Below, in pieces: positions 5,386-12,657 of a DNA stretch of 34,429 nucleotides; the first letter of the stretch is position 1; each line of letters starts with the position of its first letter. A program made the translations under genes and the position numbers. The notes beneath the pieces are model-generated. The model was not told the origin of the DNA and did no database searches. It saw only the letters and a program-made list of their open reading frames with translations. The stretch is taken from IMG/VR virus record IMGVR_UViG_2693429554_000013; one strand, given 5' to 3'. The DNA is from a virus. Lineage: Duplodnaviria > Heunggongvirae > Uroviricota > Caudoviricetes.

Positions 5386-5476
5386 GTAACCACTATGTAC
5401 ACACAAAAAAACCGCTTGCCATGCCGCAATCAGTCAGGTTACATTTCCGCTGCACCTCATAAAACGGGTGCCGGGA

Positions 5477-5694
5477 TTGGAACCCCGCTGACTATACACG
5501 CGCACAACCGCGCCAGCGGTTTTTTTGTGCGTACCGTATCGCCACGTCTTTTTCGCGTCAGAATTATGGTGGGGCGTATGGGGCCGACTTCGGTCGGGCC
5601 GGGTTCGTGTATAGCCGGTAGTTCCAACCCTGTACGTCTCACCACCCCGAGCTTGGAACCTCTGGATGGTGAGTTTTCAAAACTTACTATACAC
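5477..5694. repeat. Three copies of a bipartite motif TTGGAAC(C)-N-CTATACAC (two direct, one inverted) flanking a UUCG-loop hairpin
   Basis: Copies at 5477-5499 (direct), 5607-5629 (inverted), 5653-5694 (direct); hairpin CCGAC-TTCG-GTCGG at 5584-5597. Confidence 0.45.
5506..5527 (+). terminator. Candidate Rho-independent terminator
   Basis: Short GC stem ACCGC/GCGGT with GCCA loop followed by TTTTTT; the stem is short. Confidence 0.35.
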
Positions 5695-6380: not shown

Positions 6381-9203
6381 ATGACGACAGAGTACATCAG
6401 GGACTGGCAACAACCGCGCCACGCAGTCGGTCGCGAAGGAACAGGGATCCCCGCACCTGAGTCTGCACTTTCCTCCTGGCTGGATGCCTACCGGACTGAG
6501 AACGAGCGCCGCCAGGAAATGGCTGATGCGGCGTTCTCCGCCACGCCGCTGGGCAACCTGATTAATAAAAGCCTGGACGCACAGGAAAAACAGGACAAAA
6601 CCATCACCCTGGCAGGAGATGCCAGAAAGCAGGCACGCGGCGCGGTGGATGAAGCCATGGCCTCGCTGCGCCTGCTGCCGTCCTATCTGCGCGATCCGCT
6701 TATTCGCCACCTCTCCTTCCTGCGCAAAAAACAGGAAGCCGATCGCCGGAAAGGCAAAAAGAGCTGGCAGGCTGAACGCTACGCGCGCGGAACCCTGCGC
6801 AAAATATTCGAACGTCTGGACCGCACCGACCACCGCTGGCTGACACCGGGTTATCGCTCCCTTGCAGGACGCGAACGCCTGGATGATTTGCTTTACCTGC
6901 CGCAGCTCAACAAGCACCAGATACAGACGCTGGCCACCATGACGGCGGCGATGTTCAGCAGCACCTTCGAAAAACTCTGCGATGGCTTTGGCGCGACTGA
7001 TGGCGAGCTGACCATGGATGTAACCCTGAAGGCGTATCAGATGCTGGCCCGCATGGCGTTACACCTGCACGCCATGCCTCCGCATTATGACGCACTGACA
7101 ACAGATAAAGACCGGAGGAACGAACCGGATACGGAGCTGCTGCCGGGCGCAGTCCTTCGCCTGACTTGTGCGGAATGGTGGAAACGCAAACTGTGGCTGT
7201 TACGTTGCGAGTGGAGAGAAGAACAACTCCGCGCCGCCTGTCTGGTTTCCAGAAAAACATCGCCCTATCTGAGCCAGGACGCATTAAGCGAGTTTCGCGC
7301 ACAGCGCGAGAAAACACGCGATTTCCTGAAAAGTTTCATGCTGGAAAACGAAGACGGGTTCACGATTGATCTCGAGACGGTGTATTACGCGGGAGTAAGT
7401 AACCCGGTTCACCGTAAGGCAGAAATGATGGCCACCATGAAGGGGCTGGAACTTCTGGCCGAAGCCCGTGGCGACAAAGCGGTGTTTCTGACCGTCACCT
7501 GCCCGTCAAAATACCACGCCACAACAGAGAACGGTCATCCGAATCCCAAATGGAACGGGGCCACCATGCGCGACTCCAGCGATTACCTGGTTAACACGTT
7601 TTTTGCGGCGGTCCGCAAAAAACTGAACCGCGACGGCCTGCGCTGGTATGGCATCCGCACGGTGGAGCCTCACCATGACGGCACCGTGCACTGGCACATG
7701 ATGGTCTTTGCTCATCCGGAAGAAATCGACAGCATCGTGGCCATCACCCGCGATATTGCCATTCAGGAAGACCGCCACGAGCTGGGCGATGACATAACTC
7801 CGCGTTTTAAGGCGGAGTACGTCGACGGCTCAAAAGGCACGCCAACCAGCTACATCGCCACCTACATCGGAAAGAACCTGGACAGCCGCGCCGTGGATGG
7901 CATCGACCCGAAAACGGGCAAGCCACGCGTTGACCACGAAACCGGAAAATCAATGGCCGAGAGTGTGGAACGCGCCATCGGCTGGGCGCGCCTTCACCGG
8001 GTCCGCCAGTTCCAGTTCTTTGGCATCCCCTCCCGTCAGGTATGGCGTGAACTCCGCCGCCTTGCCAGCCAGATGGCACGCAACCCGGAAGGCCCACAAC
8101 GGCTGAAGGATGATGCAATGGATGCGGTACTCGCTGCCGCTGATGCCGGGTGTTTTGCCACCTACATTGAGAAACAGGGCGGCGTACTTGTTCCACGCAA
8201 AGACTACCTGATTCGCACCGCCTACGACCTCGCAGATGAGCTGAACGATTACGGTGAACAGAGCGTACAGATTTACGGGATCTGGTCGCCGCTCATCGGG
8301 GAGTCTTCCCGCGTATGCACGCATCCGGATAACTGGAAGCTGGTAAGACGCAAACCGGAAGCGGAAGACAGCGCCCGCGAAAATGGTTTTGACCTTCAGG
8401 GCGGCCCTGCCGCCCCTTGGACTCGTGGCAATAACTGTCCCCATGTACAGGAAACGGACAACAACGGGACAGAACAGCCGGAAGAACGGCCAGCACCGTG
8501 GCCGCAGCTCCCTGGCGGCGTTGAAGTGAACGAATGGATGCGCTCACTGAAACGGCACGAACGCCGGGCGCTGATGCGTTCGCTGCGTGACAAGCAGGCA
8601 AAAAACAGCAGTGATGAAATGCAGAACTGGACACAGAGCCGCAAACAGCCACAGCCTTTGCCTGATAACCACGAATTACTCGCTAAAGAATGGCGGGAGT
8701 CTGCCGAATCTCTCGGCCTGCATATCGGTGAACAGCAGATGCAGCACCTGTTACGGGGCGGCAGCCTGTACGTTGACGGCAGCATCATTGCACCACAGGG
8801 ATTTGAAATTGTACGCAAACCGGATACCCGCCCGGACAGCCGAATCACACAGCTCTGGCAGCACCTGAGCCGTAATCACGGCGTAAGCAGCACGGAGATC
8901 CGCCATAACCCGGTCGCCAGCTATCTGGCACAGCTGGGGGCATCAGACCCCGAAGCCGCCGCACGTCTGGCATCCACACTTCAGCAGGACCAGAACACCA
9001 TGAAAACCCCCGTTACCGTGCTTTCTGACATGCTGCGCGTCATCCGTGACGCAGAGCACGCACAGAGAATCAGTGAAACAACTGAACGCGCCCGCCGCAA
9101 AGCAGACCTGCTGCGGGGTGGCCTGACCAGTGGAAACAAAAAACAGACAGAAACGGGATTCACAAATCCCGTAAATGAGCAAAAAACGCACCGCGATATA
9201 TGA
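6381..9203 (+). CDS. Rolling-circle replication initiator endonuclease, P2 gpA family
   Basis: 940 aa; metal-binding motif EPHHDGTVHWHMMVF and paired-tyrosine motif YIATYIGK typical of the P2 A / phiX174 A superfamily; long C-terminal region. Confidence 0.85.
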   Translation: MTTEYIRDWQQPRHAVGREGTGIPAPESALSSWLDAYRTENERRQEMADAAFSATPLGNLINKSLDAQEKQDKTITLAGDARKQARGAVDEAMASLRLLPSYLRDPLIRHLSFLRKKQEADRRKGKKSWQAERYARGTLRKIFERLDRTDHRWLTPGYRSLAGRERLDDLLYLPQLNKHQIQTLATMTAAMFSSTFEKLCDGFGATDGELTMDVTLKAYQMLARMALHLHAMPPHYDALTTDKDRRNEPDTELLPGAVLRLTCAEWWKRKLWLLRCEWREEQLRAACLVSRKTSPYLSQDALSEFRAQREKTRDFLKSFMLENEDGFTIDLETVYYAGVSNPVHRKAEMMATMKGLELLAEARGDKAVFLTVTCPSKYHATTENGHPNPKWNGATMRDSSDYLVNTFFAAVRKKLNRDGLRWYGIRTVEPHHDGTVHWHMMVFAHPEEIDSIVAITRDIAIQEDRHELGDDITPRFKAEYVDGSKGTPTSYIATYIGKNLDSRAVDGIDPKTGKPRVDHETGKSMAESVERAIGWARLHRVRQFQFFGIPSRQVWRELRRLASQMARNPEGPQRLKDDAMDAVLAAADAGCFATYIEKQGGVLVPRKDYLIRTAYDLADELNDYGEQSVQIYGIWSPLIGESSRVCTHPDNWKLVRRKPEAEDSARENGFDLQGGPAAPWTRGNNCPHVQETDNNGTEQPEERPAPWPQLPGGVEVNEWMRSLKRHERRALMRSLRDKQAKNSSDEMQNWTQSRKQPQPLPDNHELLAKEWRESAESLGLHIGEQQMQHLLRGGSLYVDGSIIAPQGFEIVRKPDTRPDSRITQLWQHLSRNHGVSSTEIRHNPVASYLAQLGASDPEAAARLASTLQQDQNTMKTPVTVLSDMLRVIRDAEHAQRISETTERARRKADLLRGGLTSGNKKQTETGFTNPVNEQKTHRDI

Positions 9204-9244
9204 AGCGCGCACAAAACAGGCAAAAACGGGATTTAAAAATCCCG
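9152..9244. promoter_or_regulatory. Two 20-bp palindromes ACGGGATT-N4-AATCCCGT 73 bp apart, upstream of parM; candidate parC centromere/operator
   Basis: Palindromes at 9152-9171 (inside the 3' end of the gpA-like gene) and 9225-9244; part of a ~40-bp direct duplication. Confidence 0.45.
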
Positions 9245-9279
9245 TAAACGATTAATTAACCAACATAAGGAAAAGCGAC

Positions 9280-10239
9280 ATGAAAATTTGTATCGACGAC
9301 GGCTCCACCAACATCAAGCTGGCATGGACTGAGAATGGCGAACGCCGCAACGCCATCAGCCCGAACAGCTTCAAGTCGGAATGGTCTGCGCCGTTCGGTG
9401 GCATGCAGCCCGCGAACTACATGCTTGATGGCGTGCGCTATGGTTTTGATCCGGTCAGCGATCGCTTTGTCCAGACGACCGACACGCAATACCAGTACAG
9501 CGATGTGAATGTCATTGCCATTCATCACGCGCTGGTCAAATCAGGCATCACACCACAGGAAGTGGATGTGGTTGTCACCCTGCCACTGAGCGAGTATTTC
9601 GATACAAACGCACAGCCGGACATGGCCAACATCAACCGCAAAAAAGCGAACGTCATGCGCCCGGTGGAGTACCAGAACGGCGAAGCATTCACTATCCGTA
9701 ACGTACGGGTTATGCCTGAATCCATTCCGGCTGGCTTTAAGGCACTGGCTGACATGAGTCCGTTTGAATCCCTGCTGATTGTGGATTTGGGCGGAACCAC
9801 GCTGGATGTGGCAAAGGTTCAGGGGCAACTGGCAGGTATCAGCCAGGTGTTTTGCGATCCACACGTAGGCGTTTCTCTGATGGCCGATGCCGTGCTGTCG
9901 GTGATGGCCACCAACGGTATGCGCACCAGTCACCACATCGCCAATACCATTATCGAACATCGCCACGATGAAGCCTGGCTGCGCCAGCACATCCACAATG
10001 ACGCGCATTACGCCAGCCTGATGGCAGTTATTCGTGAAAAGGAGGAAACACTGAAACAACGCGTGATCCGCGCGCTGGCGGGTTTTTCGGGTTACGGGCG
10101 GGTGATGGTTGTAGGTGGAGGAGCGGAGATTGTGGCACCCGCTATCCGCGAAGCCTGCGGAGTTAATGCGACTTTCATCGCGGACGGGGTGCCACAGTTT
10201 GCTCTGGTTAATGGGCTGTACGCAATGGACAAGGAGTAA
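9280..10239 (+). CDS. parM: ParM/StbA-family actin-like segregation ATPase
   Basis: 319 aa; N-terminus MKICIDDGSTNIKLAW and motifs ISPNSFK, YQYSDVNV, LIVDLGGTTLDV match my recollection of plasmid R1 ParM. Confidence 0.85.
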   Translation: MKICIDDGSTNIKLAWTENGERRNAISPNSFKSEWSAPFGGMQPANYMLDGVRYGFDPVSDRFVQTTDTQYQYSDVNVIAIHHALVKSGITPQEVDVVVTLPLSEYFDTNAQPDMANINRKKANVMRPVEYQNGEAFTIRNVRVMPESIPAGFKALADMSPFESLLIVDLGGTTLDVAKVQGQLAGISQVFCDPHVGVSLMADAVLSVMATNGMRTSHHIANTIIEHRHDEAWLRQHIHNDAHYASLMAVIREKEETLKQRVIRALAGFSGYGRVMVVGGGAEIVAPAIREACGVNATFIADGVPQFALVNGLYAMDKE

Positions 10240-10243
10240 ATCA

Positions 10244-10558
10244 ATGACGACACCAACCAGACGGATAAGTTTCTATCTGAAGCCCGCCGTCGTCAAGAGC
10301 GAACGGGAGGCGTGTAATTACCTCGACAGCCTGCCAGCCTCCGAACGCAGCCGCGCACAACGCGCGGCTTTTCTGGCTGGACTGGCTCTTATAAAACGCA
10401 CCCCCGCGTTGGCGTATTCGCTGGCAGAATGGTCAGAAGACGAAATACGGATGCCACCGCTACCAGTACAGCCTGAAAAACCGGCGCAACCAGCAGCAGA
10501 CAGCGCCCCCCATATGCAGCAGGTGAAAAAGAATATTCAGGCGTTTTTCCCGAAGTGA
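10244..10558 (+). CDS. parR: ParR/StbB-like centromere-binding adaptor
   Basis: 104 aa; RRISFYLKPAVVKSEREACNYLDSLPASERSRAQRAAFLAGLALIKR aligns with my recollection of R1 ParR; AGGAG RBS; ORF-track start 10115 is in frame but overlaps parM. Confidence 0.7.
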   Translation: MTTPTRRISFYLKPAVVKSEREACNYLDSLPASERSRAQRAAFLAGLALIKRTPALAYSLAEWSEDEIRMPPLPVQPEKPAQPAADSAPHMQQVKKNIQAFFPK

Positions 10559-10572
10559 AAACAGGAGTAACT

Positions 10573-10860
10573 ATGTCCACCATTACCAAAAAATGGTTAC
10601 AACGTAAAATCACAGAGTTTAAATCGTGGCGCGAAGACATCCCGTTCGGTCTTGATGAAGACGATCACAATATGTTAATCGCACTGGAAATCGCACTTGC
10701 ATCACTGGAAGCAGAGCCAGTGGCATGGATGCACGCAAATAATCCTATTGGAATACCGGCGATAACAAGAAGTAAAGATGTTGCAGACAGCTGGCGCTCT
10801 AAGGGATGGAATGTATTGCCTCTTTATTCACTGACCCGCCCCATCAATTTATGCCATTAA
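10573..10860 (+). CDS. Hypothetical protein in AT-rich insert
   Basis: 95 aa from ATG 10573 (RBS AGGAG); AT-rich by eye. Confidence 0.5.
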   Translation: MSTITKKWLQRKITEFKSWREDIPFGLDEDDHNMLIALEIALASLEAEPVAWMHANNPIGIPAITRSKDVADSWRSKGWNVLPLYSLTRPINLCH

Positions 10861-10871
10861 TGGAAGTAATC

Positions 10872-11231
10872 ATGATGAAAGATAATTCCGGAAGCCAGCG
10901 TGCATCAGTTGCAGTTATGGTAATGATTAAATTTGTGAAACAGTACACCGGAAAGCCAATTTCGCTCCGGCAATTAAGCAAAGAAACCGTTTCACTGTCA
11001 TATCTGGAGCAAATATTCAGATATTTACGGGAAAGTAGCCTGGTAAAAGCCACACGCGGCCCGGGTGGTGGATATATCCCGACAAAAGAAAATTACAGTG
11101 TTGGTGATATTGTCCGGGCAATGAAATGTTCCGGATTATATACACAGCACGTTATTCTGGCTGCACTGGATAATATTTCTTTAACCAGCCTGCAGGAAGA
11201 CACAAATTATCAGTTGTCTGCCATTGAATAA
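10872..11231 (+). CDS. Rrf2-family-like transcriptional regulator, short form
   Basis: 119 aa; ISLSYLEQIFRYLRESSLVKATRGPGGGY matches the Rrf2/IscR winged-helix signature as I recall it; lacks the three-Cys cluster. Confidence 0.6.
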   Translation: MMKDNSGSQRASVAVMVMIKFVKQYTGKPISLRQLSKETVSLSYLEQIFRYLRESSLVKATRGPGGGYIPTKENYSVGDIVRAMKCSGLYTQHVILAALDNISLTSLQEDTNYQLSAIE

Positions 11232-11235
11232 GAAA

Positions 11236-11278
11236 ACCCGGAACGGGTGCGCAAATTCTTTGTGCGCCCGTTCCGGGT
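11236..11278. terminator. Strong hairpin between convergent genes, with T-run on the minus-strand side
   Basis: CCCGGAACGGGTGCGC ... GCGCCCGTTCCGGG stem, loop AAATTCTTTGT; T-rich tract on minus strand. Confidence 0.55.
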
Positions 11279-11299
11279 TGGACAAGCGAAGCGCGTCAG

Positions 11300-11557
11300 C
11301 TATCCGGCCTGCAACAACTCCAGAGCCATTTGTTTTTCTTCCGGACGCATCCGCTCAATCAACAGCTTTAACACACCATTCTCCAGCCCGCTGGGCACCA
11401 GTGTGTGCGAGTAGGTCAGATTCATCACCCAGGTATGTCCGCACTCGAGACGGGTGCAACGGTAATACACATCAGCAAACTGATCGGTTTTCCAGGCTGT
11501 TTTCTCAATCACTGCATGTGCACCGCAGCAATGACATCGCGCTTTCTGTCTGCGCAT
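11300..11557 (-). CDS. ogr: Ogr/Delta-family zinc-finger late-gene transcription activator
   Basis: Cys-x2-Cys ... Cys-x4-Cys pattern (CHCCG...CTRLECGH); start moved to internal ATG 11557, preceded by GGAGG. Confidence 0.7.
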   Translation of the reverse strand: MRRQKARCHCCGAHAVIEKTAWKTDQFADVYYRCTRLECGHTWVMNLTYSHTLVPSGLENGVLKLLIERMRPEEKQMALELLQAG

Positions 11558-11622
11558 TTTCCACCTCCCGGAACAGCGTTTTACTGCCACCGATTTTACC
11601 CGCTCTTTCCCCATACCGCACA

Positions 11623-12657
11623 TCACTCCATGGGTTCATCAAAATCAAGAATAAATTTCACCTCCCCCAGTCGTCTGATATCCGGGTCGCTGTTGATCCC
11701 CTCCATAATCAGGCGGCGCATCGGGATAACCTCATCCCTGTAATATGCCTCGCGGGATTTCAGTGGGTCACCAAGCCCGGCCGTATTTGCGGGAATGATG
11801 CCGGCAAGTCCGGGTGGGAAACGGTGCGCGACGAGCTGATCCTGGGCACTGATGGTTTTTATATTCAGGAACTCATCTTTTGTACCTGAATCCCCGATAG
11901 GGATCACCTTAACGCCTTCTTTGTCTCCGCCCGGTATATTGATAAACATGGATTTAAAATTACCCGCCCCTTTTGACGCCTCTATTTTTTTACGGAATTC
12001 CGCCTCGAGCTCGGGATCCATGTCCGGGTCAGTGGAATACAGGATATAACCAAGATGTGCGCCGTTCTTGTAATACTTGCGGCGAAAGCGGGTGGCATCC
12101 ACATTCAGCATGGCGGATTCCATCCCGTGAATATAATCCGGGACACCGTAAACCTGCTGTTGCGGGTCATAAATGGCCACGAACACCACTTCGCCTGGCG
12201 GGTAAACGAGATCTTCCAGTGCCGCCTGCACAATCACCGTGCCACCCTCGTTGTTACGCCGCAGGTACAGCGACGGCAGTGTGTGCAGGCGCACTACCAG
12301 ACCAAAGCCATTGCGCACTTTAAGCAGACCCATATCCCCGAATATCAGCAGATTGGTCACTGCTGCCGCCATGGCGGCGTGTGTCATACCACCGCCCCCC
12401 CGAAAACCCTGCATGATCATATTGACGCGCGCACGCAATACCGCGCCGTGATACGGTGCGATATTGGCCAACATAGCGAGATCCATGCGCTCAATGGGCG
12501 GCGTGTACCAGCCGTTATAGCCATCCCAGAGCGAGCCGTAATAACAGCCCCATGCAGCGACCGGTTCCGGGTCACCAAATTCAATAAACGTCATTTTGCT
12601 GGCTGTTTTTTTTGCCACGCCATCGTGTAGCACGGGGGATTTTTTCTTTTTACTCAT
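11623..12657 (-). CDS. Portal protein, P2 gpQ family
   Basis: 344 aa; immediately upstream of large terminase on same strand, divergent from scaffold/capsid genes. Confidence 0.85.
   Translation of the reverse strand: MSKKKKSPVLHDGVAKKTASKMTFIEFGDPEPVAAWGCYYGSLWDGYNGWYTPPIERMDLAMLANIAPYHGAVLRARVNMIMQGFRGGGGMTHAAMAAAVTNLLIFGDMGLLKVRNGFGLVVRLHTLPSLYLRRNNEGGTVIVQAALEDLVYPPGEVVFVAIYDPQQQVYGVPDYIHGMESAMLNVDATRFRRKYYKNGAHLGYILYSTDPDMDPELEAEFRKKIEASKGAGNFKSMFINIPGGDKEGVKVIPIGDSGTKDEFLNIKTISAQDQLVAHRFPPGLAGIIPANTAGLGDPLKSREAYYRDEVIPMRRLIMEGINSDPDIRRLGEVKFILDFDEPME

Follow-up and report, generated by a model that had tools for sequence, protein, structure and literature searches.

The second gene of a two-gene cargo cassette in a P2-like Escherichia coli prophage encodes, almost certainly to judge from its sequence and predicted structure, an IscR-derived winged-helix protein that lacks the sensor loop and that can neither bind an Fe-S cluster nor report Fe-S status. 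The protein, which we call ORF2, belongs to the same family as PHROG 24072, which is annotated 'unknown function'. What is new here is modest: PHROG 24072 is an IscR-like family in which a clean deletion has taken out the sensor loop along with half of the dimerisation helix, and it is distributed across P2-like and lambdoid temperate phages. Phages often encode regulators similar to those of their hosts, and Rrf2 regulators that work without a cluster, such as CymR, are already known. A literature search returned no paper in which an Rrf2 or IscR-like protein of a phage is characterised, and the 'IscR' matches in PMC6908951 are ISCR elements, not the regulator. For the cassette as a whole we tentatively favor, at somewhat below an even chance, a signal-blind, IscR-derived DNA-binding cargo protein that would act as a dimer on apo-IscR-like operators, probably at host promoters.

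The window, by which we mean the whole 34.4-kb stretch of DNA analyzed, is an E. coli prophage that is P2-like and belongs to the P88 group (Xuanwuvirus, Peduoviridae). Over the 1.5 kb around the cassette (10200–11700), it has 100% identity with the chromosome of E. coli strain 48956, in which the prophage adjoins yecA. The gene order around the cassette is gpA-like, parM, stbB, the cassette with ORF1 and ORF2, ogr and portal, and the features of this region are as follows:

6381–9203: replication endonuclease gene, gpA-like
9280–10239, plus strand: parM (Pfam StbA_N and ParM_N; RefSeq annotation)
10244–10558, plus strand: stbB/parR-like gene, stop codon at 10556–10558 (Pfam Plasmid_stab_B; RefSeq annotation)
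10552–11232, plus strand: cargo cassette, 681 bp, 42.6% GC, with edges taken from a sister prophage (L018)
10573–10860, plus strand: ORF1, 95 aa
10872–11231, plus strand: ORF2, 119 aa, mini-Rrf2 (IscR-like) winged-helix protein by prediction
11235–11279, minus strand: hairpin (fold energy, terminator-like match, conservation in the sister prophage)
11300–11557, minus strand, convergent: Ogr/Delta-like zinc-finger gene (Pfam Ogr_Delta)
11623–12657, minus strand: portal gene
minus strand, with the portal gene: terminase gene

A first-pass annotation of this DNA had described an AT-rich two-gene insert at 10573–11231 in an accessory slot, and this description held in each of its parts. Both ORFs are present, and the GC content of the cassette is 42.6%, compared with 55.4% for parM-stbB and 51.8% for the whole window, with a GC3 of 0.39 to 0.43 versus 0.65 for parM-stbB. 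The edges of the cassette come from a comparison with the sister prophage of E. coli Z1324SEC0014, which shares the ParM, StbB and portal backbone of the window and encodes an identical Ogr protein. Homology of this prophage to the window stops at 10551 and restarts at 11233, and we therefore placed the cassette at 10552–11232; at exactly these edges the sister prophage carries 1074 bp of unrelated cargo and no Rrf2 cassette. Slot content is also different in P88, vB_EcoM-569R5 and P88_4B11, which diverge from the window slightly earlier, within stbB at 10396–10441, and in four further prophage loci (L099–L102). A second insertion point lies at 11299/11300, where the sister prophage has 218 extra bp and Salmonella loci (L006 among them) have approximately 870 extra bp with a gene for a 209-aa protein. 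Some cassette variants carry three Eaa-like genes, not one, before the Rrf2 gene. Altogether, these results show that the cassette is cargo, acquired horizontally, of the variable gpA-gpQ slot near cos. A P2-type cos sequence was not found in the window, and cos could thus not be placed; Rfam gave no match inside the cassette.

The insert had further been proposed to be bounded by a strong hairpin. The hairpin at 11235–11279 is indeed strong (ΔG −34 kcal/mol, z −5.0, with 0 of 200 shuffles folding as well) and lies at the edge of the slot, but it is not part of the insert, since it is 98.5% conserved in the sister prophage despite the different cargo. Its U-tract is on the minus strand, from 11234 down to 11222, as is the terminator-like match. 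Because of this conservation and of the minus-strand U-tract, we conclude that the hairpin is a phage backbone element marking the right edge of the slot and was not brought by the insert. Most likely, it is the intrinsic terminator of the convergent terminase-portal-ogr transcript of the minus strand.

To identify ORF2, we compared it with profile collections. It matched the Pfam Rrf2 family (PF02082) with 50.9 bits (cut-off 30; E 2e-13), over profile positions 2–85 of 132 only, which bears out the Rrf2 assignment of the first-pass annotation; RefSeq names the protein 'RrF2 family transcriptional regulator'. Its score with the NCBIfam model rrf2_super (TIGR00738), 53.5 bits, was below the cut-off of 73.3 because the C-terminal half is missing. 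The best NCBIfam model was IscR (TIGR02010) with 59.3 bits, well under its cut-off of 207.55, and the scores with the IscR equivalog PRK10857 (46.3 bits versus a cut-off of 275), the CymR model (49.2 versus 195) and the NsrR model (13.7 versus 182) were lower still. Since it falls short of the equivalog cut-offs and lacks the ligand residues, ORF2 is, as judged from its sequence, not an orthologue of IscR, NsrR or CymR. The match with PHROG 24072 was much stronger (162.6 bits, E 1.1e-47). Among proteins of known structure, sequence comparison returned the IscR chains 4HF0, 4CHU and 4HF1 first (E 8e-11) and then CymR. The AF2 model of ORF2 (pLDDT 83.4) consists of helices at residues 5–24, 32–35, 42–54 and 77–83 and of wing strands at 58–61 and 67–70. 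Foldseek aligned this model best with apo-IscR and IscR-DNA structures (TM 0.72), and each of the top 36 PDB matches was either an Rrf2 protein or a putative regulator sharing this fold. Two other starts have been annotated for the gene, 10806 (RefSeq, 141 aa) and 10860 (123 aa). With a Shine-Dalgarno sequence (GGAAG) at 10862–10866, the 119-aa start is a better fit than 10806 to both the Shine-Dalgarno spacing and the homologues.

The recognition helix of ORF2 (SLSYLEQ) is exactly that of E. coli IscR, and so is its wing (RGPGGGY), with S43, E46, Q47 and the wing R62–Y68 corresponding to IscR Ser40, Glu43, Gln44 and Arg59–Tyr65. IscR reads type 2 DNA with Ser40, Glu43 and Gln44, whereas NsrR has Thr/Ala/Lys where IscR has Ser/Glu/Gln (PMC5411485). 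A link of ORF2 with NsrR and nitrosative stress, which had also been suggested, is therefore unlikely, the more so given its low score with the NsrR model. What ORF2 lacks relative to IscR is a stretch of approximately 25 residues. The gap spans Cys92, Cys98, Cys104 and His107 together with the N-terminal half of the dimerisation helix, and the same deletion is present in all four phage proteins included in the IscR-type alignment. The only cysteine of ORF2, Cys86, is not conserved among its relatives. The absence of Fe-S ligand cysteines noted at first pass is explained by the deletion of the ligands. The C-terminal dimerisation helix is predicted as a remnant of about 8 to 12 residues (93–100), which is conserved in the family. 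ORF2 differs from IscR also in its length (119 versus 162 aa), in the absence of the C-terminal tail, in an N-terminal arm unlike that of IscR, and in its location in a prophage cargo slot instead of upstream of iscSUA. The second-best group among the structural matches was CymR of Bacillus subtilis and Staphylococcus aureus (2Y75, 3T8R), Rrf2 proteins whose function likewise needs no Fe-S cluster; unlike ORF2, CymR has a full-length dimerisation helix and is a host chromosomal regulator. CymR is under the control of its partner CysK. The YLEQ helix and an RGxGGY wing are found in CymR-type Rrf2 proteins as well, and conservation of the reading residues is thus no proof of specificity for IscR boxes.

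When 1.84 billion representative proteins were searched with a profile, ORF2 fell into a family of about 20 clusters at 50% identity, each of 95 to 135 aa, whose members can be aligned over its full length; in ordinary full-length Rrf2 proteins, only the winged helix can be aligned. In an alignment of 21 of these mini-Rrf2 proteins, S43, Y44, E46, G63, G65–Y68 and L99 are invariant, Q47, R62, P64, A98 and V102 are conserved in at least 90%, and no cysteine column is conserved. All 21 are matched by both PHROG 24072 and Pfam Rrf2, and the short architecture is held down to approximately 31% identity. IMG/VR contains 284 loci encoding a relative, and most of the 80 that we kept are Klebsiella-type prophages. 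The gene lies between a cI-like repressor gene and recE-xis-int, on the early-left side, in Rac-like Klebsiella prophages and in Citrobacter phage Chris1. On a short contig, probably a lambdoid early region, a 104-aa relative adjoins a DUF977 gene and a helicase-loader-like (IstB_IS21) one.

ORF1, preceded by a Shine-Dalgarno sequence (AGGAG) at 10563–10567, is a short member of a mosaic family of phage proteins, Eaa/DUF551-N, with the invariant core motif IALASLEAEPVAW. Longer relatives carry DUF551 or other C-terminal modules, and the names given to members of the family are variously Eaa, DUF551 or, wrongly, valyl-tRNA synthetase. ORF1 had no match in Pfam, NCBIfam or PADLOC and matched PHROG 660 and PHROG 60, both annotated 'unknown function'. 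Its AF2 model (pLDDT 85.8) is that of a small helical protein, without a PDB fold match at E ≤ 0.001; the only similarities of this model are with uncharacterised proteins of phages and with the N-terminal modules of larger ones. ORF1 relatives fill the same P88 slot without any Rrf2 gene, and others are found in the ea region of P22/lambda-like prophages, adjoining Ead/Ea22. The neighbours of mini-Rrf2 genes, in turn, differ from ORF1 in other loci (L005, L016, L017 and L049). The 2 genes also evolve differently, to judge from codon comparisons between the E. coli and Salmonella copies: ORF1, with 3 synonymous and 8 non-synonymous differences, is fast-evolving, and ORF2, with 8 synonymous and 2 non-synonymous ones, is under purifying selection. 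ORF1 is an accessory protein unrelated to ORF2 and is not an obligate partner of it.

The place of the cassette, between replication and portal genes, is a known one. The gpA-gpQ region next to cos is a variable hotspot of P2-like phages that holds old/tin in P2 and many validated defence systems; it also houses non-defence genes, for instance partition systems, which about a quarter of these phages have (Rousset et al. 2022, PMC9122126). The arrangement of the present cassette is already included in the hotspot table of that study, where it is catalogued only. A later study reported that many unannotated genes of the hotspot turned out to be defensive (PMC13586616). The cassette resembles the known cargo of the hotspot in occupying the same cos-proximal slot and in the variation of slot content among related, including sister, prophages. 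Together with its AT-rich, horizontally acquired character, this would fit a function in competition or defence, with the mini-Rrf2 protein, alone or with ORF1, silencing the promoters of incoming phages or regulating a defence function. We consider this unlikely. PADLOC returned 0 families for ORF1 and ORF2, and neither protein has an effector-like domain or a known defence domain, ORF1 being small and helical with no counterpart in the PDB. Moreover, the cassette lacks its own promoter, whereas the cargo of the sister prophage has a long non-coding leader; mini-Rrf2 genes of other phages have different neighbours and lie outside defence hotspots; and the gpA-gpQ hotspot, as mentioned, houses non-defence genes too.

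The sensor-less protein that we favor as host-directed cargo could instead serve its own phage. A regulator of the early-left, excision or partition genes of the prophage would suit the position of the gene in Rac-like prophages, a site of early regulators, and that of ORF2 at the end of an operon in the window. The ATG of ORF1 follows the stop codon of stbB by 14 nt, and 11 nt separate ORF1 from ORF2. The gap between the end of stbB and ORF1 is too short for a promoter, and a promoter scan returned one site, within ORF1, versus 3.1 expected by chance. Because there is no room for a promoter of their own, ORF1 and ORF2 appear to be read from the upstream operon, that is, they are probably co-transcribed with parM-stbB as the tail of the rightward early/partition operon. 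However, the gene is dispensable for the phage. Approximately 1267 E. coli genomes match some part of the flanking backbone, of which just 37 have the gene, and the sister prophage does with the same backbone but without it. The family furthermore occurs in unrelated backbones, P2-like and lambdoid, which makes a common phage operator unlikely, and the upstream regions of the mini-Rrf2 genes from 12 representative loci carry no IscR-type box, as described below. An internal role of this kind is therefore improbable in our view.

The distribution of the gene is consistent with accessory cargo of one lineage. It was found in 37 of 5426 complete E. coli genomes (approximately 0.7%), with an identity of always at least 98.9%, which disposes of the concern that it might be a conserved structural component of these phages. 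The ogr-portal type of the window prophage occurs in 42 genomes, so that the cassette travels with one prophage lineage. The cassette gene is also present in Salmonella enterica and Escherichia albertii, and a scan of species-representative genomes added only E. albertii NBRC 107761.

To search for operators in the phage, we used the published core of the IscR type 2 motif, AxxxCCxxAxxxxxxxTAxGGxxxT (PMC4169559). Allowing up to 1 mismatch, it had 2 matches in the window versus 4.3 expected, and it had none in the regions preceding the mini-Rrf2 genes of 12 representative phage loci. One of the loci (L030) has a core match with 1 mismatch just beyond the 3′ end of its mini-Rrf2 gene. The IscR type 1 box gave no matches. 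A scan with a 26-bp type 2 consensus produced one candidate inside ogr (11466–11491, minus strand) with 3 mismatches, where 0 such sites were expected. We rejected this candidate, a site within coding sequence that lacks 5 of the 9 bases of the published core, mostly those of the second half-site; in addition, the sister prophage, devoid of the Rrf2 cassette, encodes the very same Ogr. The absence of an IscR box from the prophage and from the upstream regions of the family genes in these 12 loci makes host promoters the likelier targets of ORF2, an argument from negative evidence only, and considered by itself we hold action at host promoters to be possible but rather doubtful. Against the favored reading also speak the loss of about half of the dimerisation helix, the divergent N-terminal arm, the reputation of the slot as a site of anti-phage systems (PMC9122126), and the position of the mini-Rrf2 genes in lambdoid phages, which could suit phage developmental regulators as well.

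The reading that we favor, that of signal-blind cargo acting on operators of the apo-IscR kind, would work as follows. ORF2 would be expressed from the rightward early/partition operon, of which it would be the last gene. What the protein keeps of the dimerisation helix is short and hydrophobic. The protein may form dimers and may bind in this form to apo-IscR (type 2-like) operators; both dimerisation and binding are inferred. At host promoters, it would then mimic or compete with apo-IscR whatever the Fe-S state of the cell. A role of ORF2 in reprogramming Fe-S regulation or as a decoy is a plausible hypothesis. Extended to all of PHROG 24072, the proposal would be that these proteins of temperate enterobacterial phages are viral mimics of IscR, permanently 'apo', which occupy host type 2 operators or pair with IscR, and in this general form it has only a small likelihood.

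Pairing with IscR could also be the entire function, with ORF2 titrating the host regulator into inactive heterodimers through its C-terminal helix remnant. The retained segment ILAALDNISLTSL resembles LTGFLNNITLGEL of IscR, and in conservation across the family it ranks second among the parts of the protein, with an invariant L99 and with A98 and V102 conserved in at least 90%. The most strictly conserved part, however, is formed by the DNA-reading residues, which a pure decoy would not need, and overall ORF2 is only approximately 33% identical to E. coli IscR, so that we judge such a dominant-negative decoy very unlikely. Finally, 2 small genes separated by so few nucleotides, one with a DNA-binding domain, may recall a type II toxin-antitoxin-like module, and a protein shorter than any characterised Rrf2 member may recall a functionless, truncated pseudogene, but we rejected both readings as extremely improbable, since the pairing is not conserved (mini-Rrf2 genes have other neighbours, and ORF1 relatives are common without an Rrf2 gene) and ORF2 is under purifying selection in a family whose architecture is constant down to the identity given above.

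At present, ORF2 is best described as a correctly annotated accessory regulator present in approximately 0.7% of complete E. coli genomes. If it protects against phages, it would be a regulator-only entry in the repertoire of the P2 hotspot. If the PHROG 24072 proteins are IscR mimics, genes of Fe-S biogenesis and anaerobic respiration (suf, hya and nap) would be uncoupled from the real Fe-S status of the cell upon infection or induction, and this would be an undescribed phage takeover of a metal-cofactor homeostasis circuit. If the mini-Rrf2 protein acts on the IscR regulon, it would provide structural work with a natural minimal Rrf2 DNA-binding module, and it would mean that phages tamper with Fe-S homeostasis by means of a sensor-less copy of the host's own sensor.

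A pair of structured RNAs lies in tandem on the + strand of the window:

5452-5526, + strand: isrK Hfq-binding RNA (Rfam, 68.7 bits)
5562-5649, + strand: C4 antisense RNA (Rfam, 81.3 bits)

The two RNAs (5452-5649) overlap a pseudogene annotated as "ash family" and are followed immediately downstream by a gene for a "derepression protein". The isrK/C4 pair is a P1/P4-style RNA immunity element within a P2-like prophage.

The gpA-like replication endonuclease (window 6381-9203) has 940 amino acids, and the gpA protein of P2 approximately 760. The window protein therefore seems to be much longer, with the extra part at its C-terminal end. Two direct repeats of 51 nt each, with a spacing of 73 nt, occupy window positions 9137-9260, covering the 3'-terminal part of the replication gene together with the intergenic space ahead of parM, and each contains a 20-bp palindrome (ACGGGATT-N4-AATCCCGT). 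These repeats look like a parC-type centromere or operator of the ParM/StbB partition system.

In the partition adaptor gene (stbB/parR-like), homology to P88, P88_4B11, and vB_EcoM-569R5, related phages that bear other cargo in the slot between gpA and gpQ, is lost before the final 40 to 55 codons (10396-10558). Because of this, the C-terminus of the adaptor seems to have been swapped along with the cargo.

On the other side of the cassette, a second insertion point for cargo was found at 11299/11300, precisely at the ogr stop codon. This site contains no cargo in the window, 218 bp in the sister prophage of E. coli Z1324SEC0014, and approximately 870 bp, with a gene of 209 amino acids on the minus strand, in the Salmonella loci L006-L010. 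The start of the ogr/delta-like gene itself (window 11300-11626) is ambiguous among gene calls: the RefSeq protein has 85 amino acids (start at 11557), alternative calls give 104, and the longest ORF (108 amino acids) begins with a GTG codon at 11626 and overlaps the portal stop codon.

The cassette also exists in a variant form. In the E. coli loci L011-L015, 3 Eaa-like genes (137, 95, and 88 amino acids) replace the single ORF1 5' of the Rrf2 gene. The join with the window cassette falls inside ORF1 (window 10687-10724), which suggests that this variant arose by recombination between paralogous Eaa-like modules.
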